Notes under the pieces: model-generated
What the model saw: the letters and a program-made list of their open reading frames with translations, nothing else
Told to the model about the DNA's origin: nothing
Databases searched by the model: none
NCBI RefSeq assembly: GCF_002105155.1
Contig: NW_019028997.1
Location: 558,001-622,000 of the forward strand
Direction: 5' to 3'
Origin: Lobosporangium transversale
Lineage: Eukaryota
Length of the DNA: 64,000 bases
Program-made: the position numbers and the translations under genes
In this document: one piece after another, positions 25,753 through 64,000 of the stretch
How the letters are laid out: each line of letters begins with the position of its first letter
How positions within the stretch are numbered: the first letter of the stretch is position 1

Positions 25753-25783
<31 letters not shown>

Positions 25784-25831
25784 AAAAACATTGCCTGCAT
25801 CCGGACAAACAACAGGAATTGAGAGGTTACA

Positions 25832-37850: not shown

Positions 37851-38325
37851 TAAATGTCATCTTGGCTCTATAGCCCATGCACATGAGGCCGTACATTATT
37901 GACGATGTATGCTTGATCTGTTTATTAGCTTATGTTATTCATGAGCCGATATTTATTCATTGAGCGCAATATTAAGTGCATAGCAAGCGTTTAATATATT
38001 ACAGTTGTTTCCAGACGATCATCAACCTATATTCATGAGTCTATACCCATGATACTACTAAATAAAACGAACTCTCAGCAGCCTTGGTATGCTAAGATTC
38101 CCTTTTAAAGAGAGAGACCAGACAGCGAAGGTTCAAAAGGCACCAATGTTATGAGCGTTTGTTACTATCAGTCAGCTTATTTGGATCAAACTAACATTCT
38201 TAACTATCGACTATATTGATGACCAAACCAATCAAATAAATCTAGCAATGGCCCATGTTTATCAGTCAGCATCGAGCGTGTTACACCACTGGGAATATTT
38301 GGGTGTCGGTTAAGGTACTCTCACA

Positions 38326-40348
38326 CATGAATGGCCAAAGTCGCGTTGGTCTTGCGTGCCTCTGACAGCGTAAGGGCTCCTTCGCCCCTGATTGAGTTGT
38401 ATCCCAGTTACAAGGTAGTGTTAACCTTGAGTGCCTGTGGCAGTACAAGAGCTCCTTCGCTCCCAACTGAGTTGCACCACAAGGCCAAAGTAGTCAAGGT
38501 TGTGTTAACCTTGAGTGCCTCTGACAGTGCAAGGGCTCCTTCGTCCCCAACTGAGTTGTACCGCAAGTTCAAACAAGTCAAGGTTGTGTTAATCTTGAGT
38601 GCCTGTGACAGTACAAGAGCTCCTTCCTTCCCAATTGAGTTGTACCGCAAGTCCAAAGCAGTCAAGGTTGTGTTAGCCTTGAGTGTCTCTGACAGTACAA
38701 GGGCTCCTTCATCCCCAATTGCTTTACTACTGAAGCTCAAAGAAGTCAAGGTTGTGTTCGTCTTCGACAGCAACAGAATTCCTTCCTTCCCAAGCGAGTC
38801 GTACTCCAAGTCCAAAGTGACCAAAGTTGTATTGGTCTTGAGCACTTCTAACAGTGCAAGAGCTCCTTCCTTCCCAATGGAGTTGCCCATCAAATCTAGT
38901 GTGGTCAAAGTCCTGTTAGCCTTGAGTCCCTCTGATAGTGCCATGACTCCTTTATCTCCAATTCGGTTGCACATCAAATCCAGCGTGGTCAAAGTCTTGT
39001 TAGTCTTGAGTGCTTCTGATAGTTCCAGAACTTATTCATCCCCAATTGAAAGGCCCTTCAAGTTCAACGTAGTAATAGCGTTATCGTCCCTGAGTGTATT
39101 TGCGAGTGATCGAAAGTCACTAGCATCAATCTCTCGAGGCTTCATCTCAATAGTTAGCTTTTGAAGGTGTGGTGGCCTGCTGAGCTGTAAACTGGGGACC
39201 TTTATAGTGTTCGGAGGTAAAACAATATGGATCGCCTTCATGCTGCTAAGTTCTATGATGTGAACAAGCATTCCATATCTGGGAGCCATTGAAAGTATTT
39301 CTTTGGTGGTGCTTTCTTGAAACTCTCCGAGTTCAAGCCGAAGGATCGATACACTTGACTTCTTTAGTGCTTCTTCAAATGCTTCAAGATCACTTTTACT
39401 CCAATTCCAGTCAAAACTGATATCCAACTCGTAAACACGTCTTGCATTGGTCAGCGCATTGAAGAATTCTTCAGCTGTGGTTTTGGATTTCAATGTGATG
39501 ATCACTTTGCCAAGGTGCAAGTCATATTCGCCGCCATTCAACCCCACTACCTTTTTGAACACTTTCTGTTCTGCTTCTCCATATGTCCAACGATAGTGAT
39601 CTATACAGACCCATTTGACATGGCCTGTCTCTGTCGTGATCCTGTACAAGTTGCCAAGTTGTTTATCTTCATCATTGTTTTGAAGGAATTTCCCCAGTTG
39701 CAGCTTAAGCATTTCATCGTCCTTCTTTCTGGCTTCCAGTAACAGGTCAATCACCATGTTGCTCTTTTCCAACATCATCTCTGCAATCGTTTTAAGGTTA
39801 GAGTTGATCATTTCAGTTTGTGCGTTGTCGCGAGTAGTAAGGATTGAGTTGAAAGAATGAACCAAGTTTGATAATGGGTAAAATATCCTGGGAGGCTAGA
39901 TTGGTTGGTACTCCCAACGCGGACAAACTGATGACGGCCATGCTGTTGCTGCTGGCACTGGTGCTACTATTACTGCTGCTATTACAGTTGCAGGCCTGTG
40001 GTTCTGCTGTAATGACGTCCAGGATCTTGTCAGGATAGAATGCAATGCGTGGGGGTTCGATTCTAGTAGGACGAAAGAAAAATCAAAGTTAGGATACGCA
40101 CTTACTTTTTGTTCCTGAGCAACACAAATGGTAAAATAAAACTCTTACCTGTTACCATTAGAGTCTTGAAGGAACAGGATGGGATGTCCATCCAACTTGA
40201 ATCGCTGTGCATCTGGAAACACATCCTGAATGTCTTGCAAACACACATAGTATGACGAGTCGCCATTGCTTGCCGAGATGGAAGCAATCCTGACACCGAC
40301 TTCTTCAATGATGTCAGCTTTTCGGAATCGTTGGTATTGTTGGGTCAT
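38326..40348 (-). pseudogene. LRR family paralog 2 (pseudogene)
   Basis: ATG 40348, intron 40148-40063. Frameshift near 39870, an in-frame deletion joining LKLQ to LGKFLQ that removes most of the PRLF/CECGEH domain, TAA at 39034-39032 and a further stop at 38410-38408. About 9 LRRs. Confidence 0.9.
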
Positions 40349-41299
40349 GGAGATGAGTCGAGGGATGATGATGAAAAGGAAGAATGAAAAGATTCGTTCA
40401 TTCTATTTTTTATGCATTTTCTTTTTTTTGCTTCGCCATTTGGTGACGCAGGTGAGAAATATGGCTGTAACGTACTTTCTTGTTGTTTAGAGCTTGATCT
40501 TGCTTGACATACTAGTTGTTTTTCCATCCATGGATACGATCCACTTGTGTCCTTGGCTTAAAGTAAAGTGCTCCTTGTTGAAGGCAAAGATGCTTTCGAA
40601 TGATGTTGCATCGATTATGACCAGACATGGTTATACCAACCAACAATGCCCTGCTTACGAAAGATAGTTCAGGCTTCGAGCTACCGACTACTATGTTAAG
40701 CAATAATGGCAGATAACGGAGCGATGACTATAAAATATCTGTAGTTTGCAATGGTACTCTAGTCAAGTTGATAAGAGCGGTAGCTCATAGCTTTATATTG
40801 ACTTCTGATGAAAAGGTGATGATCTGAAATTAGAGTATATGGCCCAGCACAATACAAAAGCTGATACTTTGATCATAAATTTGGACCGCTGCTGTCAATA
40901 TCCAATATCAAAACCGAAAATGCCATATGATTTTTACTTTACATAGCTGCCTCAGGGAGAGAGCTTGGTCGACAGATGTATTGGAGCATCTGTGCAGCAT
41001 GGACTTTCATACAAGTGGACCAGGACTTATAAAAAGCAAAGATTTGCACTTCCAGAGCTGAGTAAATGACTAGGTATACTATCCTTACCAATATCACAAT
41101 AATGGTGATCGACCATATCTTCCAAAGCTATCAACTCTTCAAGACCAAAAAGATATCATGACGCCAAATCCATGGTGATGAAGCAAGTCCTTGTGGAGAT
41201 ATTAAAGTAACAGTAAAAAATAACTAAAACACTCACTCAGTTATGCGTGTTAGTGCATGAAGAGCAAGTCTTGTCCAGACAAACAACGGCCCACTTCGT

Positions 41300-41640
41300 A
41301 CTCAATGGCTTTTAATTTTTCTTTGTTGTTCAATCGAGTCGAGCAGGAGAGACTTACTAATGGAGTTATATAGCTTATCATAAAATATCCTTTCAGAGAG
41401 AGAGGAGTATTCGAAACTCATTTGGATGCGTCGCACATAAAGAGCGACTTGGACAAGTAATTCTTCAGACTTAGGTCTATTCAATCGGGAATAATATTTG
41501 GAGAATGCTTGGAAACGCGACAAAAGGGAAGCTAACTCATTTGTGAAGACATTTGGAAGATATGTTGTAGATGATTAGAGGAGCATATACGGATAGTGAG
41601 GATAGTATGTAAGAGAGCGAGAAGTCCAAGGGTTCAAGAA
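41300..41640 (-). pseudogene. Degenerate repeated coding fragment, possibly an F-box-like N-terminus
   Basis: Reverse complement of about 63650-64000, with a partial copy at about 23100-23220. The 63.7 kb copy reads CLPYVFTNELAFLCRVSKH, reminiscent of F-box motifs. Confidence 0.35.
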
Positions 41641-41826
41641 AATGATGTAAAATTATTTTTTATTTCTTATTTTTATTTTATTTTAATTTCCATATTTTTG
41701 TTTTTATTTCTTATTTTTATTTCTTATTTTTTATTTCCTTAATTTAATTCTTATTTTATTTCTATTTACTATTTGTTTTTTTTTTTTTTTAATATTTTGT
41801 TTAATGATTTAATTTTATCTCACTTC

Positions 41827-42287
41827 TTTGTTTAAAAAATATAACAAGGCCAGAGTCAATAGCTGAATATCTATTTGTTCATGCTTATGCTTCCATATGC
41901 GAAGAGAAGAAAGGCGGACATTAAGAGAACAATATGACTTGTTGATGACACTTATCGCTTGTGGAGCTGCAAATGACGAGAGTAAGCATACATTTATTTA
42001 AATGCATTGTGCTTACTATCTTTTCATATTCCACTGAATTATCTTGAATAGTACTCTTCATAATGTACTCTTACTTCATTTAATCGCAGTCAGCCTCTTC
42101 AAAGGAAAGGAAGACAAACTTGGCTGGTGTTGTCAAGATACTCTGCCTCTATTCTTGATCAAGGGCTGGCTGCCTGTGAGCATGGGTGTGTAAATACAAC
42201 CGTCACTATGCTTATGTTATGGGCCTTTGTCCTGTTTAGTTTAACCACATCACACTACATGTTGCTCGTTGCTCATTGTCTAAATAA
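41827..42287. repeat. Near-identical ~460-bp direct duplication, copy A
   Basis: Matches 48511-48982 apart from a few small indels and substitutions. Lies upstream of LRR paralog 2. Confidence 0.93.
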
Positions 42288-43014
42288 GTTTCTTCCCTTG
42301 GAGTATGGGAGGTCTTTGCTTGCTCTGGTACCAAGAGGTATGAGAGGAGTATAGATGACATCAGAAGCGGATAATGAGCGGCATAGACTCCATGCATCTG
42401 CTGCTATTCGCTGTCTCAATTTCTAAATTTTTGCCACCAACAGGACGGACCAATAGATGTGAGAGATGTAAGGGCAATGGACGCGCGCACATCACATGAA
42501 TCTCTCTCGGCTCTTTTTGCTTGACCCTTCTTCTCCCTTGCTTCGTCTCTTTCACTATACAATCTCAGCATTAAATCGAATATTGAATCGATAGAGCGAT
42601 GAACAACGTTGGATGATGTCACTTGCCTCTTGGCTTTCAAAAACGAACATTTATAAAGGTGTCATCTGTCCACTCTTTCTCTTTTTCTTCTTTTCTTTAT
42701 CCTTCAACCACTTTGACGAAAATGAAAGGTAAGAAGCTCCACTCCCAAAAGAAAAAGATAAAAAAAACATATCCACTCTTACTTGATAAGAAAAAAAAAT
42801 AATGACCACAGCTCTCATACTTTGTGTTAACTGACTGTGATGCTAACTTTTTCTTTCTTTTCTTTTCTCTTTCGCTTTCTTTTTCAGTCACTACAACCAC
42901 AATAAGAGCTACCACGTCCCTTGACAGGCATCCAGGCTCTTGGCCTCTCTTCTGGCCGAACCTAGGACCGGCCTTCCCCAAGCCCGACGAAGGGCTTTGG
43001 TCGATGCCGATCCC

Positions 43015-43720
43015 ATAAAAACCAGAAAAACCCAAAAAAATCGAAAAAACACGAAAAACCAAAAAAAATCCATAAAACACAAAAACCAAAAAAAATCCAT
43101 AAAACACAAAAACCAAAAAAAACTATAAAACAAAAAAGACCAAAAAAATCATAAAAAAAAAAGACCCAAAAAAAACATTATAAAAAACAAAAACAAAAAA
43201 AAAGTATTAAAAAGAATTAAAAAAGCAAAAAAAAATGCATAAAAAAAACAAAAAGCAAACAAAAAAAAATATAAAAATACAAAAAGCAAAAAAAAATATA
43301 AAACTAAAAAAAAGCCGAAAAAAACAAAAAAAATAAGAAAAAAAAAAAAAAAAATTTAATAACTAATATTTAATATGTAACATTATAATATTTACTCATA
43401 ATATGTAACACTATAATATGTACCAATATAATGTGTACATTATAATAATAACAACTATATTAATCAAGGTGTTTAAGGTGTCTAAGGTGTTCAGGATGCT
43501 CAAGGCGCCAAGGTACCCAAGGCCTGCTAGACACAAGATATCCAAGATACCCTAAGGCGTCTAGAAGGCTCGATACATCCAACGGTACCCAATATACCCT
43601 CCGAAACACCCGAAGAACTCTGGACACAAGGCACTCAAGACACCAAAGATACCCAAGGCATCCTAGATACTTAACGCACTTGATACACTAGAGATAGTCA
43701 AAATAGCCAACATTAATCCT
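43015..43720. repeat. A-rich array (AAAAACCAAAAAAAATCCATAAAACAC-like units) followed by short TAATATGTAAC and CAAGATACCC/CAAGGCA degenerate repeats
   Basis: Seen directly. Confidence 0.65.
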
Positions 43721-44050
43721 CAAGACCCTTATACCCTAGTCGTAGTTGTTAAAATAATAAATAAAAAGAATAAAAATTATAAACCATCGTATTTAAATAT
43801 TCTCCCTATAAGCGCAGACGGAATGCGAAAATGGATGTTAACCAACAGTGCTTTTGCCAGGTTCAAAAACCGAATATGAGGTTGCGTGTGTGGAGGAAAA
43901 CGAACGGCTGCGCGATTTAGTTATTTTTTACAGGTGCATTGGATCACTCATCACGCCCAATTGTTTTTGGTGGCATTTTTTTAAATTTATTTTATACAAC
44001 GGGGAGCCTCCATCAACGTTAGCACGTTAGAATCCCCTTGCAAGGAGAGA

Positions 44051-44117
44051 AAGAGTAAACGTCGAAAGATCAAAAGGCAACGTCGGAATGAATGCTTGGC
44101 TACTGCAAGTCAGTTAT
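44051..44117 (-). pseudogene. Short degenerate 28S rRNA fragment downstream of LRR paralog 3
   Basis: Minus strand ataactgacttgcagtagccaagcattcattccgacgttgccttttgatctttcgacgtttactctt aligns ungapped to recalled LSU ataactggcttgtggcagccaagcgttcatagcgacgttgctttttgatccttcgatgtcggctctt (54/67 by hand). Confidence 0.8.
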
Positions 44118-44180
44118 TTATTTGGACTGAATAATATTCAAACATCATTATGATGCTCAAGTCATCCAACCTGCTATCAT

Positions 44181-47100
44181 TTAGACTGCTACAGTCAAAG
44201 TGGTGCTATTCTTCAGTGCCTTCGATAGCGCATGAGCTCCTTCATCCCCAATTGAGTTGCACCACAAGTTCAAAGTAGTCAGGGTTGTATTAGCCTTGAG
44301 TGCCTTTGACAGTGCAATTGCTCCTTCAGCTCCAATTGAGTTGCATGCCAAGTTCAGAGTAGTCAAAGCTGTGTTAGCCTTGAGTGCCTCTGACAGTGCA
44401 AATGCTCCTTCCTTTCCAATTAAGTTATTGGGTAAGTCCAAAGCGTTCAGGGTTGTGTTAGCCTTGAGTGCCTCTGACAGTGCAAGTGCTCCTTCATCCC
44501 CAATTGAGTTGTCCCGCAAGTTCAAAGTAGTCAGGATAGTGTTAACCTTGAGTGCATCTGACAGTGCAAGCGCTCCTTCCTCCTCAATTGAGTTGTCCTG
44601 CAAGTTCAAAGTAGTCAAGGCTGTGTTAGCCTTGAGTGCCTCTGACAGTGCAAGAGCTCCTTCCTTCTCAATTGAGTTGTGCGACAAATTCAAAGCAGCC
44701 AGGGTTGTGTTAACCTTGAGTGCCTCTGACAGTGCAAGAGCCCCTTCCTTCTCAATTGAGTTGCCTTCCAAGTTCAGGGTAGTCAAAGCGATGTTATTCT
44801 TGAGTGCCTCTGACAGTGCAAGTGTTCCTTCCTTTCCAATTAAGTTATTGGACAAGTCCAAAGCGTTCAGAGTTGTGTTAGCCTTGAGCGCCTCTGACAG
44901 TGCAAGAGCACCTTCATTCCCAATTGAGTTGCTGAACAAGTCTAAAGTAGTCAGGATAGTGTTAGCCTTAAGTGCCTCTGACAATGCAAGAGTTCCTTCG
45001 TACCCAATTGAGTTGCCCTGCAGGTCCAAAGCAGTCAAGGCTGTGTTAGCCTTGAGCGCATCTGACAGTGCAAGAGCACCTTCATTCCCAATTGAATTGC
45101 CTTCCAAGTTCAGGGTAGTCAAAGCGGTGTTATTCTTGAGTGCTTCTGACAGTGCAAGTGCTCCTTCCTTCTCAATTGAGTTGCGCGACAAGTTCAAAGC
45201 AGCCAGGGTTGTGTTAACCTTAAGTGCCTCTGACAGTGCAAAAGCCCCTTCCTTCTCAATTGAGTTGCCTTCCAAGTTCAGAGTAGCCAAAGTTGTGTTA
45301 ATCTTGAGTGCCTCTGACAATGCCAGCGCTCCTTCATTCTCAATTAAGTTATTGGACAAGTCCAAAGTAGTCAAGGCTGTGATAGCCTTGAGTGCCTCTG
45401 ATAGTGCAAGAGCTCCTTCATTCCCAATGGAGTTGCTGAACAAGAGCAAAGTATTCAGGGTAATGTTAGCCTTGAGTGCCTCTGACAGCGCAAGAGTTCC
45501 TTCCTTCCCAATTGAGTTGTCTTCCAAGTTCAGAGTAGTCAAGACTGTGTTAACCTTGAGTGCCTCTGACAGTGCAAGTGCTCCTTCATACCCAATTGAG
45601 TTGCCCTGCAGGTCCAAAGTAGTCAAGGCTGTCTTAGCTTTGAGTGCCTCTGACAGCGCAAGAGCTCCTTCCTTCCCAACTGAGTTGTACCGCAAGTCCA
45701 AAGCAGTCAGGGTAATGTTAGCCTTGAGTGCCTCTGGCAGTGCAAGTGCTCCTTCCTTCCCAATTGCATTAAATCTGAAGTTCAAAGAAGTCAAGGTTGT
45801 GTTCGTCTTCGACAGCAACAGAATTCCTTCCTTCCCAAGCGAGTCGTACTCCAAGTCCAAAGTGACCAAAGTTGTATTGGTCTTGAGCACTTCTAACAGT
45901 GCAAGAGCTCCTTCCTTCCCAATGGAGTTGCCCATCAAATCTAGTGTGGTCAAAGTCCTGTTAGCCTTGAGTCCCTCTGATAGTGCCATGACTCCTTTAT
46001 CTCCAATTAAGTTGTTCCTCAAGTTCAAAGTAGTCAAACATCTGTTGGCCTTGAGTGCCTCTGACAGTGCCAGAGCTCCTTCAACCATAACTGAATTATC
46101 CCTCAAGTTCAACATGGTTATAGCAGTATCGGTCTTGAGTATATTTGCGAGTGATTGAAAGTCACTAGTGTTAATCAATCGAGGCTTCATCTCAATAGTT
46201 AGTTTTTGAAGGTGTGGTGGCCTGCTGAGCTGTAAACTGGGGACCTTTATAGTGTTCGGAGGTAAAACAATATGGATCGTCTTCATGCTGCTAAGTTTTG
46301 TGATGTGAACAAGCATTCCATATCGCGAGGATGTCGAAAGTAATTTCTCGGTGGTGCTTTCTTGGAACTCTCCGAGTTCAAGTCGAAGGGCCGATATACT
46401 TGACTTATTTAATACTTCCTCCAAAGCTTCAAGATCAGCTTTGGTCCAATTCCAGTTAAAGATGATATCCAACTCGTAAACACGTCTTGCATTGGTCAGC
46501 GCATTGAAGAATTCTTCAGCTGTGGTTTTGGATTTCAATGTGATGGTCACTTTGCCAAGGTACGAGTCATATTCACCGCCATTCAACTCCACTGCTTTTT
46601 CGAACGCTTTCTGTTCTGCTTCTCTATATGTCGAGCGATAGTGATCGAGACAAACCCATTTGACATGACCTGCTTCGGTCGTGATCCTGTACAAGTTACC
46701 AAGTTGATTGCCTTCATCATTTGTTTGAAAGAATGTTCCCAGTTGTCGAAGATCGGCTTCTTCAAGTACCTTATAGTCATCAATTGTGGTGATGTTGCTC
46801 AAGACCGGATGTACATTGGAAAGCGCTTCCATATATTTGACCGAGTAGTTGATAGCGGCATCGACATTCGGGATTGGTGCCAGAGAAGCCGTCGGAGACG
46901 ATGTATCCTTGAGACAGTGTAAAAGGGTGAGCATGTATTTTCCATACTTGCGATAAAACTCCATACTGCTTCGAACTTCATATCCATTATGGTTGGCAAT
47001 ATGGATTTGGCTCTGGCTGCTTGTCGTTGCGGAGTGATCCCCACATTCACAGAGGAAATAAAGGCGAAACTTCTTTTTCAAGATATTCCTTGGATTCCAC

Positions 47101-47715
47101 TCGGTCTGCTGGATAGGTAAAATAATAAAAAGTCGCGGGATTGGACACTCGTGTAGCTCAAGGCTCTGGACGAGGATGGCGTTAACATGCTTTTGAAGGA
47201 TAGCAAGTCTGTCGAGGGCTTGACGTTGGAGTTCTTTAGGTATCTCATTACTCTTCTCCTTAGTCTCCTGTTGTTGTGGTTCCTCCAAGGAAGACAAGTT
47301 AGTGACAATATTACTATTGCTGGACTGCGACGTTCCCGTAATGATGTCCAGGATCTTGTGAGGATAGAAAGCAATGCGTGGAGGTTCGATTCTAATAGAA
47401 TAAGAAAAGAAAGACATGAATGTCCAATCGAGTTCACTTATTTGGTTCTTTTTTCTTTCCAAGGCAATTGACAAGGCACCTTGATAAAGTAAATATTATA
47501 CTATACCTGTTGCCATTAGAGTCTTCAAGGAATGGGATGGGATCTCCATCGGATTTGAAATGTATTGCCTCTGGAAACATGTCTCGAATGTCCGTCAAAT
47601 CCACATAGAATGTCAAGTCGCCATTGCTTCGAGAGGTGGAATCAATTCTGACACAAACTTGTTCAATCGTTCCAGTGCCAGCCTGTCGGAACTGTTGGTA
47701 ATGAATTTGTGTCAT
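44181..47715 (-). CDS. LRR family paralog 3 (intact), about 23 LRRs
   Basis: ATG 47715 (MTQIHYQQFRQ), intron 47506-47392, exon 2 47391-44181 open throughout. Confidence 0.92.
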
Positions 47716-48510
47716 TTTTCTTTTTTTCTTTTTTTTGGTGATTATTCGATGAATGATGACAAGCTGAAGGGTTTTCTCATTTTCATTTTCTGAGCAATGG
47801 AGTCGCCGACCATCTTTTTTTTTTTGTCTGGCTTTACCGCTTGAGTACAAAAGTACAAGGATACAGGTCTGTCGAATGCATTCATCTGCTGTGCCTAATA
47901 AATTAGAAAAGCTATCCACATGCACATGCAGTCTTTGATTGGCTCTCAAATGATGACTACAGACACAATTAAGTGCGCCTTGGGCTGTTGATACAGTACG
48001 GACCACATAATGGCGCCGTATCATTCTCTCTTCTTGCAAATTTCCTGAAATACCACCCACCCTGACAACTGAACTAAGGTGCTTTCCTCATCCTTGTGCT
48101 TGTCCTCCCGGTCACCTTTGAGCTCTTCAACAATGTTATCTTTGTCACTGGCAGAGGGTACTTTGTGAAATATTCCTCAATCGATGGTCTACTGTAGTTG
48201 AAAGGAGTATCTGTTCCGTATAAACGCTAATGGAGGAGTTAATCCTCATGTGGGAACTAACGGAAGGCGTAGCTGGAGGGAGATCATACGGAGAGTATGG
48301 ACAGTGTATAGGAGAGCGAGAAAATGAATTAAGTCCAAGGGTTCCAGGAAATGAAGTAAGGAATTTTTTTATTTTTATTTTACATTTTTTATTTTTATTT
48401 TACATTTTTTATTTTTATTTTACATTTTTTATTTTTATTCCATATTTTATTTTTTATTCCATATTTTTTATTTCGTATTTTTATTTGTTTTTTATTTATT
48501 TTATATTTAT

Positions 48511-48982
48511 TTTGTTTAAAAAATATAGCAAGGCCAGAGTCAATAGCTGAATATCTACTTGTTCATGCTTATGCTTATGCTTCCATATGCGAAGAGAAGA
48601 AAGGCGGACATTAAGAGAACATTATGACTTGTTGATGACACTTATCGCTTGTGGAGCTGCAAATGACGAGAGTAAGCATACATTTATTTAAATGCATTGT
48701 GCTTACTATCTTTTCATATTCCACTGAATTATCTTGAATAGTACTCTTCATAATGTACTCTTACTTCATTTAATCGCAGTCAGCCTCTTCAAAGGAAAGG
48801 AGGGAAAGACAAACTTGGCTGGTGTTGTCAAGATACTCTGCCTCTATTCTTGATCAAGGGCTGGCTGCCTGTGAGCATGGGTGTGCAAATGCGGTGCCAC
48901 TGTGCTTATGTTATGGGCCTTTGTCCTATTTACTTTAGCCACATCACACTACATGTTACTTGTTGCTCATTGTCCAAATAAA
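48511..48982. repeat. Near-identical ~460-bp direct duplication, copy B
   Basis: Matches 41827-42287. Lies upstream of LRR paralog 3. Confidence 0.93.
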
Positions 48983-50943: not shown

Positions 50944-53475
50944 ATGACTCAACAGTACCAACAATTCCGAAAAGCTGGCATCATTGAAGAAGTCGGTGTC
51001 AGGACTGCCTCCATCTCTGCAAGCAATGGCAACTCATCATACTATGTGTGTTTACAAGACATTCAGGATGTGTTTCCAGATGCACAGCGATTCAAGCTGG
51101 ATGAACATCCCATCCTGTTCCTTCAAGACTCTAATGGCAACAGGTAAAGTATTTATTTATCGTATGTGTTGCTCAGGAACAAAAAGTAAGAGAACTCAAT
51201 TGCATATCCTAAGTTTTGTTTTTACTTTTGTCCTATTAGAATCGAACCCCCATGCATTGCATTCTATCCTGACAAGATCCTGGATGTCATTACAGATGGA
51301 CCACAGGTCTGCAATAATAATAGCAGCAGTAATAGTAGCAGCTCCAGCCTTAAAACGACTACGGATTTGATCCTAGAGACTAAAGAAAACGCCAAAAAGA
51401 TGCTTGACTTGTTACTGGAAGCCAAAAAGAAGGACGACGAAATGCTTAAACTGCAGCAGCAAGTTCTTGACAGACTTGCTATCCTTATCCAGAACTTTGA
51501 GTTACATGAGTACCCAATCCCTCGACTCTTTATAGTCCTGCCTGTTGACACCACCAAGTGGGACCCAAGGAATATCCTGAGGAGCAAGTTCCGCCTTCAT
51601 TTCCTTTGTGAATGTGGAGAGCACACTGCAACGATAAGCAAAAGCAATCAGAACCAGATCCATATTGCCAAACATGAAGGATATGACATCCGAAACAGCA
51701 CAGAGTTCTTTCGCAAGTATGGAAAGTACATGCTTATCCTTTTACATTCTCTCAAAATGGGGATGCCTTTGACAGCTTCCCTGGTACCAACTCCTAATCT
51801 CGATGCCGGTATCGACTATTCGATCAAATATATGGAAGCACTCCCTAATGAGTACCCAGTCTTGAGCAAGATCAACAAAATCGGTGAGTGTGAGGCACTT
51901 GAAGAAGCCGATCTTCGGCAACTGGGGAAATTCCTTCAAAACAATGATGAAGACAAACAACTTGGCAACTTGTACAGCATCACGACAGAGACAGGCCATG
52001 TCAAATGGGTCTGTTTTGATCACTATCGCTCAACATATAGAGAAGCAGAACAAAAAGCGTTCGAAAAGGTAGTGGAGCTGAATGGCGGCGAATATGACTT
52101 GCACCTAGGCAAAGTGACCATCATATTGAAGACCAAAACAACAGCTGAAGAATTCTTCAATGTGCTGACCGATGCGAGACGTGTTTACGAGTTGGATATC
52201 AGTTTTGACTGGAATTGGAGTAAAAGTGATCTTGAAGCATTTGAAGAAGCACTAAAGAAGTCAAGTGTATCGATCCTTCGGCTTGAACTCGGAGAGTTTC
52301 AAGAAAGCACCACCAAAGAAATACTTTCAATGGCTCCCAGATATGGAATGCTTGTTCACATCATAGAACTTAGCAGCATGAAGGCGATCCATATTGTTTT
52401 ACCTCCGAACACTATAAAGGCCCCCAGTTTACGACTCAGCAGGCCACCACACCTTCAAAAGCTAACTATTGAGATGAAGCCTCGAGAGATTGATGCTAGT
52501 GACTTTCGATCACTCGCAAATACACTCAGGGACGATAACGCTATTACTACGTTGAACTTGAAGGGCCTTTCAATTGGGGATGAATAAGTTCTGGAACTAT
52601 CAGAAGCACTCAAGACTAACAAGACTTTGACCACGCTGGATTTGATGTGCAACCGAATTGGGAAGGAAGGAGCTCTTGCACTGTTAGAAGCACTCAAGAC
52701 TAATACAACTTTGATTACTTTGGACATGGAGTACGACTCGCTTGGAAAGGAAGGGGCTCTGTTACTGTCGAAGACGAATACAACTTTGACTTGTTTGGAC
52801 TTCAGTAGTAAATCAATTGGGGATGAAGGAGCTCTTGCACTGTCAGAGGCGCTCAAGATCAACACAACCTTGACTACTTTGAACTTGCGTTACAGCTCAA
52901 TTGGGAAGAAAGGAGCTCTTGCACTGTCAGATGCACTTAAGACTAACACAACCTTGAGTATTTTGCGCTTGAGGCACAACTTAATTGGGAAGGAAGGGGC
53001 TCTTGCGCTGTCAGAGGCACTCAAGGCCAACACATCCTTGACTACTTTGGACTTGTTCAGCAACGCCATTGGGAAGGAAGGAGCTCTTGCGCTGTCAGAG
53101 GCACTCAAAGCTAACGCTACCTTGACAACTCTGGACTTGAGGTACAACTCAATTGGGAATAAAGGAACATTTGCATTATCAGAGGCACTCAAGGCTAACG
53201 CATCCTTGACTACTTTGGACTTGAGGCACAACTCAATTGGGGATGATGGGGCCCTTGCACTGTCAGAGGCACTCAAGGTCAATACAACTTTGACTACTTT
53301 GAACTTGCATTACAACTCAATTGGGAAGGAAGGAGTTCTTGCGCTGTCAGAAGCGCTCAAGACTAACGCCACATTGACTAAATTGGACTTGAGGGACAAC
53401 TCAATTGGAAAGGAAGAAGCCCTTGCACTGTCTGAGGTGCTCAAGACTATTGCGGCGCGGATCCGTTTTACGTGA
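50944..53475 (+). pseudogene. LRR family paralog 4, interrupted only by one in-frame TAA (52585-52587) in the first LRR; about 11 LRRs
   Basis: ATG 50944, intron 51144-51239. Exon 2 is in frame to ..LSIGDE-TAA-VLELSEALKTNKTL.. and then stays open in the same frame to 53475. Confidence 0.85.
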
Positions 53476-54172
53476 GGGTATCTTTACTGACATCCAAAAT
53501 TGCCGGCGGCGTAACACATTCGAAGTTGACTGATGAATATGAGCCATCATTAGATTTATTTGATGATTTGGTTAGCAATGTAATCTTGATAGCTAAGAAT
53601 ATTAGTTTGACCAAATAAGTTAGTGGCTGCTGGAAGCAAACGCTCATAACATTGGTGGCTTTTGATCCTTCGATGTCTGGTCCCTCTCTTTGCAAGAGAA
53701 TCCTAACATACCAATGCTGCTAAGAGTTCGTTTTATTTGGCAGCATCATAGGTATAGAGCTATGAGAATGGGTTAATGATCGCCTGGAAACAACCGTAGT
53801 ATGTTTAACGCCCGCTATCCATTCAATACTGTTCTCATCTAAACTGCTCTTGTTACAATAGCTTCTCATCTAAAATGTGTGCGGTCGAATGATCGATTCA
53901 ATAGAATACCAATGTACAGCGCCTTGCACTTAGTCATCAATCATTAAATAAGCTTTGTACCATTGCACCCTTCAAACTTTAACAATGGCTGGAGCCGATC
54001 GTCTGATGAGGGCCATTTTTATTTTATTTTGTTAATGTCGCCGCTCCCTTAAGGATTTCTATGATGGCAAGCACTGGAACAGAATGCAAGTGTTCTTACT
54101 AAAGAAAGCAATGTTGCAATGAACACTTTACTGCAGATCAGCAAATTATTTGGAATAAGTTATTTTCCTACA

Positions 54173-56659
54173 CTATTCAAATACTATTGTGATGGTCGCC
54201 TCTAGTAGTGCAAGAGCTCCTTCCTTTCCAATTGGGTTCCTCCACAAATCCAAGGCAGTCAAAGCTATATTAGTCTTGAGTGCCATTGACAATGCAAGGG
54301 CTCCTTCATTCCCAATTGAGTTGTCGGACAAGTCCAAACCAGTTAAGGTTGTGTTAATCTTGAGAGCCTCTGACAGTGCAAGAGCTCCTTCATTCCCAAT
54401 TGAGTTGTATCCCAGTTTCAAGGTAGTCAAAGTAGTGTTAGTCGCGAGCGTCTCTGACAGTGCAAGAACTCCTTCTTTCCCAATTGAATTGTTTCCCAGG
54501 CCTAGAGCGGTCAAAGTAGTGTTAACCTTGAGTGCCTCTGACAGTGCAAGGGCTCCTCCATTCCCAATTGAGTTGTAATGCAGGTTCAAGAAGGTCAAAG
54601 TGACGTTAGTCTTGAGCGCTTCTGACAGTGAATGAGCTCCTTCTTCCCCGATTGCATTGCTGGACAAGTGTAAAATAGTCAAAGTGGTGTTAGTCATGAG
54701 TGCCTCAGATAGTGCAAAAGCTCCTTCTTTTCCCATTGAGTTGCTGGACAAGTTTAAGGTAGTCAAATTAGTGTTAGACTTGAGCGCCTCTGACAGTGCA
54801 AGAGCTCCTTCATTCCCAATCGAGCTGTTCCTCATGTCCAAAGTGGTTAAAACCGTGTCGGTCTTGAGCGCATTTACAAGTACTCGAAGTTCACTAGGTT
54901 CAATCCTCCGAGATCTCAGCTCAATTGATAACTTGTGAAGGTTTGGTGATCTTTCGAGTCTTAGGGTGGAGAACTCGATAGATTTTGGGGGTAGGATAAT
55001 ATGAACCGCCCCCAAGATGGGAAGCCCTATGATACGAGAAAGTATTTGATATCGCGTAGATGACGAAAAAAACTTCCAGATATTACTTTCTTGAAACTCT
55101 CCGAGTTCAAGCTGAAGGATCGATATACTTGACCCTCTAAGTACTTCTCTTAATGCTTCAAGATCAGCTGTAGTCCAATTCCATCTGAATGTAATATCCA
55201 ACTCGTAAATTCGCTCTACATTCGCCAGCGCATCATAGAATTCTTTAGCTGCGGTTCTGGATTTTAACGTGATAGTTACTTTGCCAATCTGCAAGTCATA
55301 TTCACCGCCGCCATTCAACTCCATTGCTTTCTCAAACGCTATCTGTTCTTCGTCTCTATACATCGAAAGATAGTGATCAAAACAAACCCACTTGGCATGC
55401 CCTGTTTCCGATGTGACTCTGTACAAGCTGCCAAGTTTATTTTCTCCATTCTTGGTTTGAAGAAATGTACCCAGTTGCCGAAGATCTGCCCCTTCAAGTT
55501 CAAGGGCCACATAGTCATCAACTGCGTTGATGTTCTTCAAGGCCGAATACTCATTTGCGAGCGCTTTCATATAGTCGAGCGAATAATTGATACCAGCATC
55601 GAGATATGAGGTTGGCATCAGAGAAGCCGTCATGGGCATTTCCAACTTGAGCCACTGTAAAAGGATGACCATGTATTTCCCATACTTGCGGAAGAACTCT
55701 ATACTGCTTCGAACTCCATATCCATAATGTTGAGTAATGTGAATTTGGCTCTGATTTCTATCGCTTGCTGATGCGGTATGATCTCCACACTCGCAAAGGA
55801 AATGAAGGCGAAACTTTTTCCCCAAGACATTTCTTGGGTCCCACTTGTCAGTATCGTCAGGCAAGATTATAAAGAGTCGAGGGACTGGGTGCTCGTGTAG
55901 TTCAAAGTTCTGAGCGAGGGCGGCGCTGACGTGCTTTTGAAGGATGGCGCATCTATAGGGGGATTGATATTGCAGTTTAAGCATCTCATCGTCCTTCTTT
56001 TTGGTCTCCTGTTGCAGCTTAAGCATTTCAAATTGCACTTTAAGCATCTCCGATTGTAGTTGAAGCATTTGCTGCAGTCCAGATGTTCCGTCGCCCTGCT
56101 TATCGATCTTTTGCGGTAACTCTATACTCTTTTCGGAGTTAAATATCTCGGTTTGTCCAATGTTGTGAGGAGTGAGGGATGACTCGAAAGATGGAGGAGC
56201 CGTGTTTGATAATGATAAAGGAAGATCTTGGGATGTTAGGTTGGTCGACTTCTCCAAGAAAGGTAAAGTGAGGACAATGTTACTGTTACTGTTACTGTAC
56301 TGGGGTACTCCCGTAATGACGTCCAGGACCTTGTCAGGATAGAAAGCAATCCGTGGAGGCTCGATTCTAATGGGGCAGAAAAATAAATTAATTTGTTCCT
56401 GAGTTGATGTTAGGCACATTCGAAGTCATGATAGGACAAACAAACGCTCTCACCTGTTGCCATCACGGTCTTGGAGGAACAGGATGGGATGTCCATCCAA
56501 CTTGAATCGCTGTGCATCTGGAAACACATCCTGAATGTCTTGCAAACACACATAGTATGACGAGTCGCCATTTCTTGCAGAGATGGAAGCAATCCTGACA
56601 CCAACTTCTTCAATGATGTCGCTGTCAGCTTTTCGGAATCGTTGGTATTGTTGAGTCAT
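54173..56659 (-). CDS. LRR family paralog 5 (intact), about 8 LRRs
   Basis: ATG 56659, intron 56453-56367, exon 2 56366-54173 open. Confidence 0.9.
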
Positions 56660-56975
56660 CTTGGAGATTATTTGATAAAGGATGATGAAAAGGATGAAGA
56701 AGATGAAAAGATTCATCCATTTTATACATTGAGCATGGAATGCATTTTTTTTTTTGAATTCCATTTCGCCCGAGTTTGCAAGGGTCTCTTATCCCTTCGT
56801 CTGTTTCCAGAACAAATTTGTTCCAGATTTTTATGGGCACTAAATGCACGTAACGCCATATGATAAATGTCAGTAAAAGAGGTTGGAATCGAGATGTTTA
56901 TTCTTCATTTATTACTTTATCTTGCGTTTTTTTGTGAGGGAGGGTGAGCATAGGCGGTTGGTGTGATATTGAGGG

Positions 56976-58213: not shown

Positions 58214-58614
58214 TAGACCTCTCCCTCAATCTATCTCCAAAAGTCTGATCTTACTGAACATTGCTCACTTGACCTTCTGTCCCGCAGGCTAGGAAAGAGA
58301 AAACTAAACAGTCTACTGCTAAACATTTAGTCCAGTTTACCTGCCTGCAATGCTACGGGGTTCGCTAATATCTCAAACCCCCGTCTGTATTAAAGCTTGT
58401 CTCTCTTTGTTCGCTTGTCTTGAGTAAAAAAAAAAAAAAAAAAAGACGAGATTGAATATGCTTACCTGATAGAGGACATTGCGTAATGATATACGAAGTA
58501 TCGTTTGCGAATGCAGCGTGGAAAGAAAGGCTTACTCTTAGGTCAAGAGATCCCTTTATCTAAATGATAGTTTCGAGTGTGATGACTGATTTATTTTCCA
58601 TTACCATTCAAGGG

Positions 58615-58845
58615 TTAGGATGCGCGTGCAGAGGGGTAGGTTGATCCGCAACAACAACAATAACAACAACAGCAACAGCATCGTTGAAGTCAAAAGTCTT
58701 TTTTTTTATTCCTTTTCTTTTTGCTTTGATTTCATCCTTGAGATCAGGCACATTAGTATGTGCCTCTACCATGGCTTTGAAACGCACTAGAAATGGGTCA
58801 TTTGAATTACAAAGCAAAAAAAGCTTCAGTTGTTGTCAACCATTG
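58615..58845 (-). pseudogene. Crinkler-like N-terminal domain relic
   Basis: With frameshifts the minus strand reads MVDN..LKLF.CFV..FKAMVEAHTNVPDLKDEIKAKRK..FDFNDAVA..ADQPT, following the CRN N-terminal consensus (LFCLV..F.V..V.DLK..IK.K..F.DV.AD.LTLW). Confidence 0.6.
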
Positions 58846-59585
58846 TTTTTTTTTTTTTCTGTTGTTAAGAGAACAGTGTTGATGTTACTGAACGTAGCTG
58901 GATATCAGAAGCGAAAGGAAAAGACAAGGAAACAGGGATAAGGGCGTTGAAAGCAAATAGTCGGTGAATGTTTGAGTGAACTATAGACTACGAGCATACT
59001 GGCATACTGGTGGATGCGCTGTGCTTTAAGCGCCACCAAATAATTGGTGGCGACTGCAATTATGCACAGCACATTTAATAGGGAGCAAAGCTGTAAATAT
59101 ATACATGCATGCAGTGCTACGCGTTCCTTTGGGTTCAAACAGTCACACAATTAATAAAACTGACACAATTTGTTGATAAGGATGTCGAATGGTGACGGCA
59201 AGGGGGAATGTGGTGCATTTAAGGCTGATTATTAGAAGTCACCCTAGGTTAATGATAATGAAAGCGGATAAGCTATTTATAGCATTCATAATGCGACCTT
59301 GGCACCCAGTAGTACTTTTTTTTGTTTGTTTGTTTGTTTGAACAAAACAAACAAAAGAGAACGTAGGGCTACGGGGGCTAAAAGGATAGCGGCTAATTTA
59401 TTTGGATGCTATGCTGTATATGGTATGATATATGCCTTTTTTTTTATTGCAAGAGAGGTATTATATTCATTTGAAGGGAAGAGGAGTGACAACCATTGTA
59501 TATATATATAATATAAATGAATCTATATAGGGTTATAGGATTATGGATGATTTCTAAGTCTTTGTTGTATATATTTTATATAGTT

Positions 59586-61062
59586 TTAGATGGTGAACAG
59601 GCTTGACAGTAAGATTACTGATCCTGCGACCAATACAGCCTGGGTCTTTGGAAGGGCTGCAGGGTTGATGATGAGCCCATTCGCATTGTTAGGGTGGCTA
59701 TTCCTATTGTTTGCAGAAGTTTCATTGCCACTGCTTCCACTCAATTTGAAAGTGCCTGCGCCTTCCCTATAGGGCTTGCCATCATTCAAACACTGAGCAA
59801 TTGGTTGCATCACAAGGCTCTTGGTCTCATAAGCAACAGGCAACACACCGTTCAGGGCAACGTCCACCTCTTGAGCGAATAGATCGTGTTGCAAAACAAT
59901 GAACCCAGTACTGAGAGATGGGATCTTGGTGAGCCAAGTTTTGAAGGTATCGACAACGGATTGAGGTGTAGCAGTGCCACCAGGGATGTTCCAGTCGTTT
60001 GTATCAAATCCCTGTGTCCAGATAGAGGTCTTCAGTCCAAGCTGAGTAGCAATATTGCGAACACGAGCATCAATATCGCCTAAAAATAAAAAAATAAAAT
60101 AAAAAAAAGAAGCATAGGAATGTGTTAGGGTTGCAACTAATCCGCTTTGAAATAAACATTAAGACTATTGACAAAGCCAACCCCCATTATGAATTACCGA
60201 AGGGAGGACGCCAGTAAAGAGGAGTGACACCGATGACATCAAAGATTGCCTTCTCCGTCCACTTGAGTTCAGCAACGATCTGCTCATTGGTCAGGCTGGT
60301 CATGGAGTGGTGAGACCAGGTGTGGATGGCAATGTGGTGTCCCTCATCATAAGCACGCTTCAAAGTGGCGGGGTAGCTGATAGCACGAGAACCGACGATG
60401 AACAGTGTGGCTTTCTGGTTGTGAGCAAGGAGGTTATCGTAAAGACGAGGTGAATCAGGCGAAGGACCGTCTGGAGTTGAAAATAAAAGTAAAAATAAAC
60501 AGTCATACGTTAGGTAATTGTGCCGGTTTAATTGTTAAACAAAGGCTTTTTTAACAATGTCAAATACTTCAAACTGCCAATGTACTCCTTTGAGGGAAAT
60601 GAGGCGAGGAACAATAAAAATAAAGAAAAATAGTAATAATAATAATTGTATGTAAATAAAGCCATTCTTATTCTTACCATCGTAGGTCAAGCCCCAGGTA
60701 CCTGGAGTAGGGCATGTGGTGATGTCGTCGGAGGCTTCACACTTTTGACAAGTCCACCAACATTGTTCCTTTGGAAGACTGGAGGTGGGGTTAGGACAAA
60801 CACCTTCATTAGAGGGAGGGAAGACAGGGGCCTTTGAGAGATCGACCAGCTTTAACCACTCCTGGACTTGTGGATCCTGTGTGAAGGGAACGCAATCAAT
60901 GGTTGGGTATTTTCCCTTTTCAACAGGGGTGTATTGTTGAGGGCAAGTAGGGCCAGCTCTCTTGTCTAGATGAGTATGACCATGGGAATGAGCAGAGACA
61001 AGGGAGAGGGAAGAGGAAAGGGAGAGGATTGCAGCTGCAACTGTGAAGCTGATCTTGACCAT
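59586..61062 (-). CDS. Chitin deacetylase (CE4), secreted, probably GPI-anchored
   Basis: Exons 61062-60678, 60470-60198 and 60079-59586. Signal peptide, CWWTC..C..WGLTYDDGPS, HTWSH, RPPFGDID, DTNDW, GFIVLQHD all intact; hydrophobic C-terminus. Confidence 0.95.
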
Positions 61063-62299
61063 AATTGCTGATGATATGATATGATATATGATATGAAAGA
61101 AAAAAAAAATAAAAAATAAAAAATAAAAAAGTTCAGGGATGGGTAGGACTGAAGAGTGTGGGAAAGAGGAGGAAGAAGTGAATGAAAAAAAGATATTTTT
61201 AAGAGGAATGTCTAGTAAAGAGATGAAAGAAGATATAAAGATAAAGAAGATGAAGATGAAGGGGCCACTTTTTATATACGAATCAAAGGTGCAAAGGAAT
61301 GACCGTTGGGGAAGCAGTGACGAAAGATTCGATCCGATCCAATGCAAAATACAGATACGATATCCATGTAAACATCGACATAAACATAAACATATAAACA
61401 TAGACATAAACAATTACAAATGATGCTAAATTACAAAGAATGATTTCAGGACAGGTGTCCCCCCCTGACAATGCAGAGCTATTGTTACATGTCTGTTACT
61501 TCCTCATTGTCTTTAGTGTGTTTGTCGATATTATTTTTAAACCGTTAGACTTGGATCGCCCCTTTGCTTAGTCTCCATTTGGATGACAAAATACAACTTT
61601 TACTGTCATTCTTTGCCATGAATGGTGTCTAGTCTGGCCAAGTGGACAGGGTGCACCATTACGGAGTTGTAATTTAGTTAAATGTGCCATATTTTATTTT
61701 ACATGTACATGTACATGTATACACACATATACATATTATATATATACATGTTATATTACATTTATATTATTACTGCATCTTTATATGTTATATCTGTACA
61801 GTCTACTAGACTACTACATGTACGCCATGTAGAAGGAAAAGCCAGATGTTATAAATATATATACCAACAACTCGTCTTCGTGAATGAATAAAGTGTCCAT
61901 GTACGCACAGACATGCTAAAAAAGTTTTTTCCCCGTCTGCATCCCTGTCTACTCCATCTCTTCCTTACTCTGTACACATGCTCTGTTCTGGGGGAGAAGA
62001 AACATCCACTGCCAACTACACTCATGTAAAAAGGTACATTGGTATAAAAAATATCATTACAGAAAAGCATACATCCACTTTTATACATTTCATACAGGAG
62101 ACATGTACATTGTACGGCTCTACCTGTAACAACGCACATAAACAGTAGTAGAACCCATTGTTAAAGTGGTCCCTATTCCATATATTATTATTCCTCGGTC
62201 GAATGACAATTCATGCATAGCAAAGTGGCGATGCTGGAATCGAGAAATGGGCACATCTTTTCATCTTTTCATCATCCATCGAATAATCACCACCAAAAA

Positions 62300-63480
62300 C
62301 GACACTACATCTGTACTAACAGTTCTGAATGGCTGGCAACAACATCATTGGAAAAGTTTATGTCAGAACCGCCTCTGCCTCTGTAAGCAACGGTAACTCG
62401 TCATACAATGTCAATCCGAGAGACATTCGACACATGTTTCCAGATGCAATGCGCTTCAAGCTGGATGGACGTCCCATCTCATTTCTCAAAGACTCTGATG
62501 CCTCTGAAAAAAAAAAAAGAAAAGAAAAAAAAAAAAGAGTCTGCGCATGGCATTCTATCCTAACGAGATCCTGGACGTCATTACAGGAGTACGCAGCTCA
62601 GCAACAGCAATGTTGCCATCAGTATGTCTTGCTTGAGGGAGTCAGTAAACCCGGCCTCGCAGGATCTTCCTTTAGTATCATCAAATACGACTACTCCATC
62701 TTTCAATTCTTCCCTCACTACCCCCAATAATGGACAAACCGAGATGATCAACACTAGTCTTGGAAAGGGTATAGAGCTATTGCTAGAGGTCAAAGACTAG
62801 AGCGACGAAAGCCTCAAATTATAATTAGATGCCGAGGTGAAAGACTACCAAATGCTTAAACTGCAATCGGAGGTACTTAGGCTACAGCAGGAGAGTAGGA
62901 CGAAGAATAATGAAATACTTAAACTGCAACGTCAAGCCCTCGACAGACTTGACATCCTTCAGAAACATGTTAACGTTATTCGCATCCAGAACTTTGAGCA
63001 AAACGAGTATTCAATCCCTTGACTCTTAAAAATCTTGCCTGTTGATACAGCCAAGTAGAATTAGAACAAGAGGCGTTTGGAAATGCGGTGAAATTGAATG
63101 GCAACACATATGACTTTGTAAATTAACCATCACATTGGAATCCAGAATTACAGCCCAACAACTCTTTGATACGTTGACCAACGCGAGACGTCTTTACGGG
63201 TTGGACAGCACATTCAATTGGAATTAGGCCAAAGCTGATTTTGAAGCGTTTGAGAAAGTACTAAGGAAGTCAAATGCATCAATCCTTTGACTTGAACTTG
63301 GGGGCTTCCAAGGAAGTACTGGAGCTTCATTATATTGAAGCTACTGGAATTTGAATACTTGTAAATTCACTCAAGGCCCAACCTAGCCTTGACCTGCTTG
63401 GATTTGAACGACAAAATAATTGGAGATGAAGAAACTCTTATACTGTCAGAGGCACTCAAGACTAACAGCACTCTGGCCCT
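62300..63480 (+). pseudogene. LRR family paralog 6 (heavily decayed)
   Basis: Fragments VYVRTASASVSNGNSSY..DIRHMFPDAMRFKLDGRPISFLKDSD, AFYPNEILDVITG, QALDRLDILQKHVNVIRIQNFE and a single LRR remnant (IGDEETLILSEALKTN), with many stops and deletions. Confidence 0.88.
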
Positions 63481-64000
63481 TGTAAAACAGTCTAATGAAA
63501 GTAAGTGTATATGAACTAATTTTGAGGCTTTCCCAGATACAATTGACTGGTTTGAAGTTGGAAATAGTATTTGTATAGCGAATAAATATAGTTTAGTTTC
63601 AATAAATAATGATCCGCAGCCAAGCGCTCATTGCGAGGTTGCATTTTGATCCATTTTCTTCAATCCTTAAACTCAATTCTTCTTCCCGCTCTCTTATATA
63701 CCATCCTTACTATCCGTATATGCTCCCCTAATCATCTACAGCAATGCCTTCCATATGTTTTCACAAATGAGTTAGCCTTCCTTTGTCGCGTTTCCAAGCA
63801 TTCTCCAAATGTTTCCCCGACTGAATAGATCTTAGCCTGAAAATTTACTTGTCCAAGTCGCTCTTTATGTGCGGCTCTTCCAAATGAGTTTTGCATGATC
63901 CTCTCCCCCTGAAAGAATATTTCATGGTAAGCTATATAGCTCCATTAACAAGTCTCTCCTGCTCGCCTTGATTGAACAACAAAGAAAAAATAAAAAGGCA

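Follow-up and report, generated by a model that had tools for sequence, protein, structure and literature searches.

Segments of 28S rRNA behind clustered LRR paralogs, probably one captured fragment multiplied by local duplication

Six RNI-type LRR paralogs (P1–P6) lie within 46 kb of a 64-kb window, by which the whole stretch of DNA analysed is meant, and five of the six (P2–P6) carry a sense-oriented piece of 28S, 45–75 nt long, directly behind a CCAAATAA motif. Homology links these tags both to 28S and among themselves. Their left junction is the same in all five; the flanks remain homologous beyond them, and the divergence among the paralogs is graded. The probable history is a single ancestral capture of a 28S piece, followed by local tandem and inverted duplication and by neutral decay.

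The paralog cluster and its 28S tags

The host is a Mortierella-type soil fungus, and the N-domain of P1 matches a protein named Lobosporangium transversale at 100% identity. The six paralogs fall in one clade of 10 rows in the tree (SH-aLRT 98), with dS values grading from 0.08, found between the sister paralogs P2 and P4, to 0.80. Their positions are as follows.

17623..20487, minus strand: P1, LRR paralog, open frame of 954 aa
38336..40429, minus strand: P2, LRR paralog, frame-shifted
44181..47495, minus strand: P3, LRR paralog, intact open frame of 1104 aa
51190..53475, plus strand: P4, LRR paralog, in-frame stop at 52585-52587
54173..56425, minus strand: P5, LRR paralog, open frame of 750 aa
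62254..63480, plus strand: P6, LRR paralog, decayed remnant

Homology in both flanks and the presence of close copies with graded divergence mark this as a locally duplicated (tandem/inverted) cluster. A repeat that begins at 63682, past the P6 tag, has a second copy at 41310-41624.

Ahead of every tag stands a CCAAATAA-type motif, which P1 has as well. The tags start at about Rfam LSU position 2826 (GAUAAC), in the peptidyl-transferase region, and a much longer 28S relic elsewhere in the cluster begins at the same point.

17568..17579, minus strand: P1 motif CAGTCCAAATAA, no 28S tag behind it
38109..38184, minus strand: P2 motif (38177-38184) and 28S tag (38176 to about 38109)
44045..44129, minus strand: P3 motif (44118-44129) and 28S tag (44117-44045)
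53611..53693, plus strand: P4 motif (53611-53618) and 28S tag (53619 to about 53693)
54078..54152, minus strand: P5 motif and weak 28S tag
63600..63653, plus strand: P6 motif variant (63600-63609) and 28S tag (63610-63653)
23513..24073, plus strand: long 28S relic of 560 nt, Rfam LSU model about 2826 to 3399

For comparison with 28S, the relic and the Rfam consensus as printed were used. A blastn search of the window with the relic returned 16 rows at E ≤ 10, self included, in which the tag matches all fell within relic positions 49-119 and had the orientation of the gene beside them: P3 at 44116-44045 on the minus strand (E 1e-7), P4 at 53628-53682 on the plus strand (E 1e-4), P2 at 38161-38115 on the minus strand and P6 at 63616-63652 on the plus strand (both E 6e-3), and P5 at 54134-54105 on the minus strand (E 5.9). 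For local alignment, with 200 shuffles for each paralog, the z values were 9.3 for P3, 7.9 for P4, 4.6 for P6 and 3.7 for P2, with 0.9 for P5 and −0.8 for P1. Leave-one-out profiles recovered all five left-out tags in the 64-kb window at E ≤ 0.001 (P3 2.2e-12, P6 6.2e-7, P5 1e-3, and P4 6.5e-6 and P2 3e-5 with these two omitted jointly), the best match outside the tags and the relic having E ≥ 0.07. When the P3 flank alone was submitted to cmscan, LSU_rRNA_eukarya was placed at 44117-44059 with 16.8 bits, starting at model position 2826 (E 0.11 over 4227 families); LSU was not among the six matches listed for the P4 and P5 flanks. An earlier note, drawn from the letters alone, had claimed a sense-oriented relic of one 28S segment just downstream of five of the six paralogs, and blastn, shuffles and leave-one-out profiles confirm it. 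Of the five similarities, only that of P5, taken alone, did not stand out against shuffled controls.

DNA contigs from two runs of different studies, one of which may be the source of the assembly, span 43701-44397 with 0 differences, so that the P3 junction was not created by the assembly. Run X5, which is RNA only by guess, covers intergenic positions 43500-43727 and leaves 43782-44345 uncovered. As a possible 28S reference from another eukaryote, one viral-contig locus, L001, begins downstream of the tag region, and a second pattern had no match. The probability that chance or an assembly artefact lies behind the similarity is close to nil, for although P5 alone is insignificant against the relic and cmscan missed both P4 and P5, four independent E values converge on the same 28S segment, orientation and gene-relative place, every tag is recovered when left out, and the P3 junction reads the same in contigs from two studies.

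Past about 75 nt, nothing with significant 28S similarity was found behind any paralog. An extension of the P4 tag to about 53765, aligned by eye, was rejected, its score being reached by 63 of 300 shuffles, and the other flanks did worse. Nor is a decayed tag in P1 supported: in comparisons with the relic, P3, P4 and P6, between 485 and 911 of 1000 shuffles reached the score (485-911), as did 105 of 1000 with P5, and there was no HMM match.

A common junction and duplicated flanks

In all five tagged paralogs the tag starts immediately after the same conserved 3′-UTR block of about 28 nt, which ends in CCAAATAA; the A/T-rich motif leaves the junction ambiguous by about 3 nt. The block is also present in P1, where its end is identical to that of P3 at 14 of 14 positions. 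Flank homology between P3 and P4 (44139-44014 with 53597-53719, E 2e-13) and between P2 and P3 (38199-38076 with 44139-44011) runs about 30 nt past the last detectable 28S similarity, and these roughly 30 nt of non-28S sequence after the tag are common to P2, P3 and P4. The P2 and P4 flanks can be aligned over 365 nt, P1 17520-17432 matches P4 53885-53976 (E 6e-7), P1 17088-16945 matches P2 37956-37826 (E 3e-11), and the regions upstream of P2 and P3 match at 85% (41587-42287 with 48286-48981). The duplicated units are larger than gene plus tag, and the pattern is that of segmental duplication. Since the five tags have one junction and share sequence past the tag, they probably represent one event.

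A single capture would have placed the 28S piece in the 3′ flank of an ancestral LRR copy, probably when an rDNA- or rRNA-derived fragment was inserted as filler at a break, and the piece would then have been inherited through local tandem and inverted duplications of LRR units. P1 may be an empty site or a case of later loss. Stray DNA or cDNA is captured as filler at repaired double-strand breaks, as in NUMT-like insertions, and the tags resemble such cases in being a short foreign fragment at one point of a non-coding flank, with P1 as a possible empty site; the capture here is a putative one.

The earlier note had further suggested that the family ancestor inserted at, or was fused to, this rDNA site and was amplified with an rDNA tag, or else that rDNA homology drives its duplication. 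Fusion and amplification with the tag are supported by the common left junction, the sequence shared beyond the tag and a divergence that follows the paralog tree. Insertion into rDNA and site targeting are not supported. No 28S piece lies upstream of any paralog, and the 5′ part of 28S is absent from the window. Pfam detected no reverse transcriptase, transposase, integrase or homing endonuclease among 18 + 85 (103) window ORFs, and Rfam gave no Intron_gpI match in the window at E ≤ 10. The duplicated units have no terminal repeat or poly(A) end, and no A tract of the kind expected of a processed retrocopy or chimeric retrogene follows the tags. No HDV-like ribozyme was found beside the paralogs, the sole candidate (35081-35190) scoring 36 bits, below the gathering score of 44. 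Nor does rDNA homology appear to drive the duplications: the units extend past the tag, and P1 has the motif and the far flank without it.

Relatives of the family on metagenome contigs (69 loci) also speak against targeting, as a sense-strand search with the relic and the tag profile found a tag in 0 of 64 3′ flanks, in a set whose members are only about 35-42% identical, in which at least 10 of the 64 'stops' look internal, and which leaves out P0002 and P0003, the closest paralogs outside the window. A tag-like match in locus L029 (E 0.017) is antisense and lies between two genes, and was taken as chance.

Decay of the tags and a possible 3′-end role

By hand count, the tags agree with the Rfam consensus at 33/37 positions in P6, 49/59 in P3 and 42/60 in P4, and the relic does so at 50/59. 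The rRNA helix is not kept in the tags: the share of paired cells, 50.7%, is equalled or exceeded in 402 of 500 shuffles. The decay of the tags fits neutrality, and they would be decaying without selection and without a function of their own.

The distant pairs P3-P5, P3-P6 and P5-P6 present another side of the picture. At a dS of about 0.6 the motif block and tag form their only alignable flank, with 66-75% identity over 71 nt versus 51-58% identity at synonymous sites, which hints at some constraint. The motif and the first 50-60 nt of the tag may accordingly be pictured as a module for 3′-end formation or regulation that the LRR subfamily has adopted and that is under selection. Every tagged copy has an AAUAAA-like motif directly ahead of its tag, P1 and P3 do not differ over the final 14 nt of the block, and 25 of the 64 metagenome relatives, which belong to another species, have a conserved flank starting with an AAUAAA-type motif at the stop codon (this flank shows no homology to those of the window). 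However, P1 is intact without a tag, the tags of the pseudogenes P2 and P6 are no less well preserved than that of the intact P5, or are better preserved, structural conservation is absent, and the 28S identity, judged by dS and the hand counts, lies within what neutral decay predicts. A selected module is unlikely.

The long relic and comparison with known systems

Rfam lists an LSU_rRNA_eukarya match at 23466-24073 on the plus strand with 267 bits, within which a convincing 28S alignment extends from about 23513 (model about 2825/2826, GAUAAC) to the end of the model. At most 116 nt separate the 3′ edge of the relic from the stop codon of a conserved gene that runs towards it (24189-25826). 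That the relic starts at about the same 28S point as the tags, another claim of the earlier note, proved correct within about 3 nt, with an edge that is possibly fuzzy. The motif block is missing ahead of the relic and its left junction differs from that of the tags; given the same 28S start without the block, a single capture alone does not explain the relic. To read it as a copy of the same capture, several independent losses would be needed, since its distal 28S part is not detectable behind any paralog. The relic was also considered as a possible remnant of a seventh paralog: the 120 nt upstream of it resemble the P1 coding end (6 of 1000 shuffles reach the score), and the LRR-unit profile has no match there. 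At the relic, cmscan also aligned 21 nt, similarly weakly, to model positions 2391-2411. Besides relic and tags, Rfam found no other rRNA pieces in the window. The end of the relic recurs in one further feature.

36376..36900, plus strand: 94% copy of 24034-24563, comprising the last relic bases and the 3′ part of the neighbouring gene

Model position 2826 presumably corresponds to L2449 (by E. coli numbering). In the most far-reaching interpretation, which we consider quite improbable, a cut at GAUAAC, the L2449 equivalent, in the 28S gene of this fungus or in its RNA yields a 3′ piece that is a recurrent insertion donor. One such piece, having landed behind the poly(A)-signal-like motif of an LRR gene, would now be a 3′-end module of a fast-duplicating, immune-receptor-like LRR subfamily, and another would be the 560-nt relic, which reaches the mature 28S end.

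Repeated capture as such, in which a site-specific process makes 28S ends at the tag start and tags and relic are separate events, has a low probability. Its source could be a double-strand cut by an intron-encoded endonuclease at the L2449 equivalent, cDNA of a free 3′-exon RNA or of an rRNA fragment, or an rDNA-targeting element. It would accommodate a 28S start that is common to two types of left junction (the motif in P2–P6, unrelated sequence in the relic), and also the extent of the relic, which reaches the LSU model end and hence stops close to the mature 3′ end of 28S or at it, like an rRNA cDNA. L2449 is described as a nuclear group I intron site in fungi (PMC1299323, PMC3679873); a breakpoint near an intron site is not compelling, though, because more than 90 rDNA intron sites are known (PMC1299323). 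Against repeated capture, the five tags share their junction and the sequence after it, the window holds no intron, endonuclease or reverse transcriptase, and the relic start is fuzzy, with 4 of its first 13 positions off consensus. The link between model 2826 and L2449 is, moreover, a presumed one, and the papers found on group I introns and 28S in Mortierella offer, by title or abstract, nothing bearing on the tags. No such tags were found in the literature on Mortierellaceae LRR expansion, Lobosporangium rDNA or rDNA-fragment capture.

Under the favoured history of one capture, the tags can be placed beside known systems. rRNA-like or rRNA-complementary tracts are reported from mRNAs and 3′ UTRs (PMC4911919 and others), as short antisense matches in many genes. 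The tags similarly put rRNA-related sequence next to or in a 3′ UTR; in contrast, they are a single fragment in sense orientation whose homology is clear, and they are confined to one local gene cluster. Beyond the rDNA array, dispersed pseudogene fragments of rDNA have been described (Robicheau et al. 2017, cited in PMC10946416). As far as that account goes, the tags are of this kind: they have significant similarity to an rRNA gene, their neighbours and those of the relic are LRR genes and a conserved gene, and they are truncated, decaying 28S among protein genes, with the rRNA structure gone and no sign of function. They differ in their fixed place in the 3′ flank, in having been multiplied five-fold with an LRR gene, and in the presence of a second, longer piece with the same start in the LRR cluster. 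Mobile elements with rDNA pieces, namely R2-type elements, SINE28 (28S) and Pokey (IGS repeats), are also covered there (PMC10946416), and from what is reported of them they have in common with the LRR units a 28S piece on the 3′ side of a multiplying unit. Unlike R2, SINE28 and Pokey, the LRR units lack reverse transcriptase, transposase, terminal repeat and poly(A) end, their homology continues past the tag, and the copies are clustered within 46 kb.

The tags most likely amount to a curiosity and to no new mechanism. They illustrate cleanly how a stray piece of rDNA can hitch-hike with a gene family that duplicates in tandem, which in itself matters little, and they could serve as a neutral marker for ordering the duplications of the cluster. 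A site-specific break in rDNA or rRNA, if it lies behind the common 28S start of tags and relic, would reveal mutagenesis as a side effect of rDNA intron or processing biology in an early-diverging fungus, and a tag acting within the LRR 3′-end signal would be an exaptation of rRNA sequence.

The LRR paralog cluster

The window has a G+C content of about 40% and a eukaryotic character. It holds six paralogs (P1–P6) of an RNI-type LRR protein whose N-terminal domain measures about 450 residues.

RNI-type LRR paralogs in the window
17623–20487 (-): P1, open
about 38336–40429 (-): P2, frame-shifted (38336–39895)
44181–47495 (-): P3, intact, 1104 aa
51190–53475 (+): P4, one in-frame stop at 52585–52587
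54173–56425 (-): P5, open
about 62254–63480 (+): P6, decayed

With P1, P3 and P5 open versus P2, P4 and P6 broken, the cluster is subject to birth-and-death turnover. Pairwise dS extends from 0.08 (P2–P4) up to 0.75–0.80 (P1 versus the others), and dN/dS between the window paralogs is 0.26–0.49. The P3 N-domain, used as a protein query, yielded 739 matches with E <= 1e-3 out of 7993 candidates scored, the names being nearly all Mortierellaceae. The evolutionary tree comprised 65 rows, i.e. 5 from the window and 60 of the first 64 protein matches, after removal of four matches with <300 aligned residues and of P6, which is too fragmentary. Among the tree rows, proteins named Lobosporangium transversale match P1 and P5 at 100% identity, and a third protein of that name matches P4 at 97%. 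One clade of 10 rows (SH-aLRT 98) unites the window paralogs with P0002 and P0003, two further L. transversale proteins encoded outside the window. Two polysaccharide deacetylase gene pieces flank the cluster at its opposite ends (9395–10327 (+) and 60190–60534 (-)). In one run with the same species label as the runs covering the P3 region (43500–47700), this region was nearly absent, with only three short pieces; a strain difference or a labelling issue may be the reason.

28S rRNA gene pieces

The single LSU piece recognized by Rfam in the window is a long relic at 23466–24073 (+), scoring 267 bits, of which the convincing alignment runs from about 23513, at model position ~2825/2826 (GAUAAC), to the model end. 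Since it reaches that end and 116 nt separate it from the stop codon of a convergent gene (24189–25826; annotated on the same contig, with homologues in Dissophora), the relic stops at or close to the 3' terminus of mature 28S; judging from fungal 25S termini, the true 28S end may lie ~30 nt earlier. The last bases of the relic, together with the 3' portion of this gene (24034–24563), recur as a 94% copy at 36376–36900, a pseudogene fragment. On the 5' side of the gene, a 54-nt unit is repeated ~13 times in tandem at 25831–26550, all copies being 100% identical and the array open in several frames.

The presence of short 28S tags behind five of the paralogs, as described in the earlier note, was confirmed, with a detectable similarity of only 45–75 nt. 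In blastn against the window, the relic matched the 3' flanks of P3 (E 1e-7), P4 (E 1e-4), P2 and P6 (both E 6e-3), and that of P5 at E 5.9 only, all five matches being confined to relic positions 49–119 and in the sense of the neighbouring gene. Shuffled controls backed the tags of P3, P4, P6 and P2, not P5 and not P1. Leave-one-out profiles searched over the 64-kb window regained 5/5 tags, with E from 2e-12 to 1e-3, their best match beyond tags and relic having E >= 0.07; the P1 flank did not match the tag profiles. With cmscan, the P3 flank alone was assigned to LSU_rRNA_eukarya (16.8 bits), from model position 2826, presumably the L2449 equivalent; LSU was missed in the flanks of P4 and P5. 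DNA contigs from two studies span the P3 junction without difference.

Ahead of every tag, and in P1 as well, stands a conserved ~28-nt UTR block with CCAAATAA at its end. The relic begins at about the same 28S point as the tags, as previously noted, but has no such block ahead of it. The 120 nt upstream of the relic are similar to the terminal part of the P1 coding sequence (6/1000 shuffles reach the score), and the LRR-unit profile found nothing in these 120 nt. The relic may conceivably be the flank of a lost seventh copy.

A probable capture copied by local duplication

The left junction is identical in all five tags, and ~30 nt of non-28S sequence past the tag is common to P2, P3 and P4. 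The P1 flank is devoid of ~220 nt including the tag, yet aligns with P4 (E 6e-7) and P2 (E 3e-11) farther out in their flanks. Between P2 and P4, flank homology spans 365 nt, and P2 and P3 also match each other upstream (41587–42287 with 48286–48981; repeats of 85–87% identity). These features speak for one event rather than many. The duplicated units are thus blocks of several kb with the tag internal, not at the unit end. A further repeat pair (41310–41624 and 63682–63995, 85–87% identity) has its latter member, inverted, beginning 30 nt past the P6 tag.

Metagenome relatives were found at 69 loci (33–42% identity, one scan, N-domain alignment) carrying 91 family gene pieces; 64 with a stop and >= 200 nt of 3' flank were counted and the other 27 dropped. 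None of these 64 flanks gave a blastn match to the relic at E <= 10 or a sense-oriented match to the tag profile; the relatives are distant, however, and 10 or more of the 'stops' are probably internal. The best hits in all 477 kb were an 18-nt match (E 5.9) and one antisense intergenic match (E 0.017). In 25 of the 64 genes, from another Mortierellaceae-like organism, a ~200-nt 3' flank is conserved; it opens with an AAUAAA-type motif located on the stop codon or beside it, and has no homology to the window flanks. Paralogs among these relatives likewise keep alignable flanks.

Origin of the tags

A preferred 28S end, from a cut at the L2449 equivalent or from rRNA-derived cDNA, could have fed both tags and relic and would account for two junction types with one start; apart from this junction pattern, nothing else favours it. 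Exaptation of the tag as a 3'-end module of the LRR genes is possible but unsupported. Identical positions versus the consensus, counted by hand (P6 33/37, relic 50/59, P3 49/59, P4 42/60), are compatible with neutral decay over the dS distances between the paralogs, and the segment does not retain its rRNA hairpin (50.7% of cells are paired; 402/500 shuffles as high).

Targeting of the rDNA site is unlikely, and an insertion at it, as the earlier note proposed, is not supported: the 18 + 85 window ORFs gave no match to reverse transcriptase, transposase, integrase or homing endonuclease, and Rfam found neither a group I intron nor the 5' part of 28S in the window. The L2449 intron site is documented in fungi and myxomycetes (extracts of PMC1299323 and PMC3679873). 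A breakpoint near a known intron site is weak evidence because more than 90 rDNA intron sites are known (extract of PMC1299323). A candidate HDV-like self-cleaving ribozyme lies at 35081–35190 (+), scoring 36 bits with the HDV-F-prausnitzii model (gathering score 44, E 0.005) and 33 bits with HDV_ribozyme; no retroelement ORF was found near it.

Of the proposed ancestral fusion and amplification with an rDNA tag, what is supported is a probable capture copied by local duplication. The best reading is a captured 28S fragment hitch-hiking with a locally duplicating LRR cluster. Dispersed rDNA fragments are a known class (extract of PMC10946416), and the tags of the LRR cluster belong to it.
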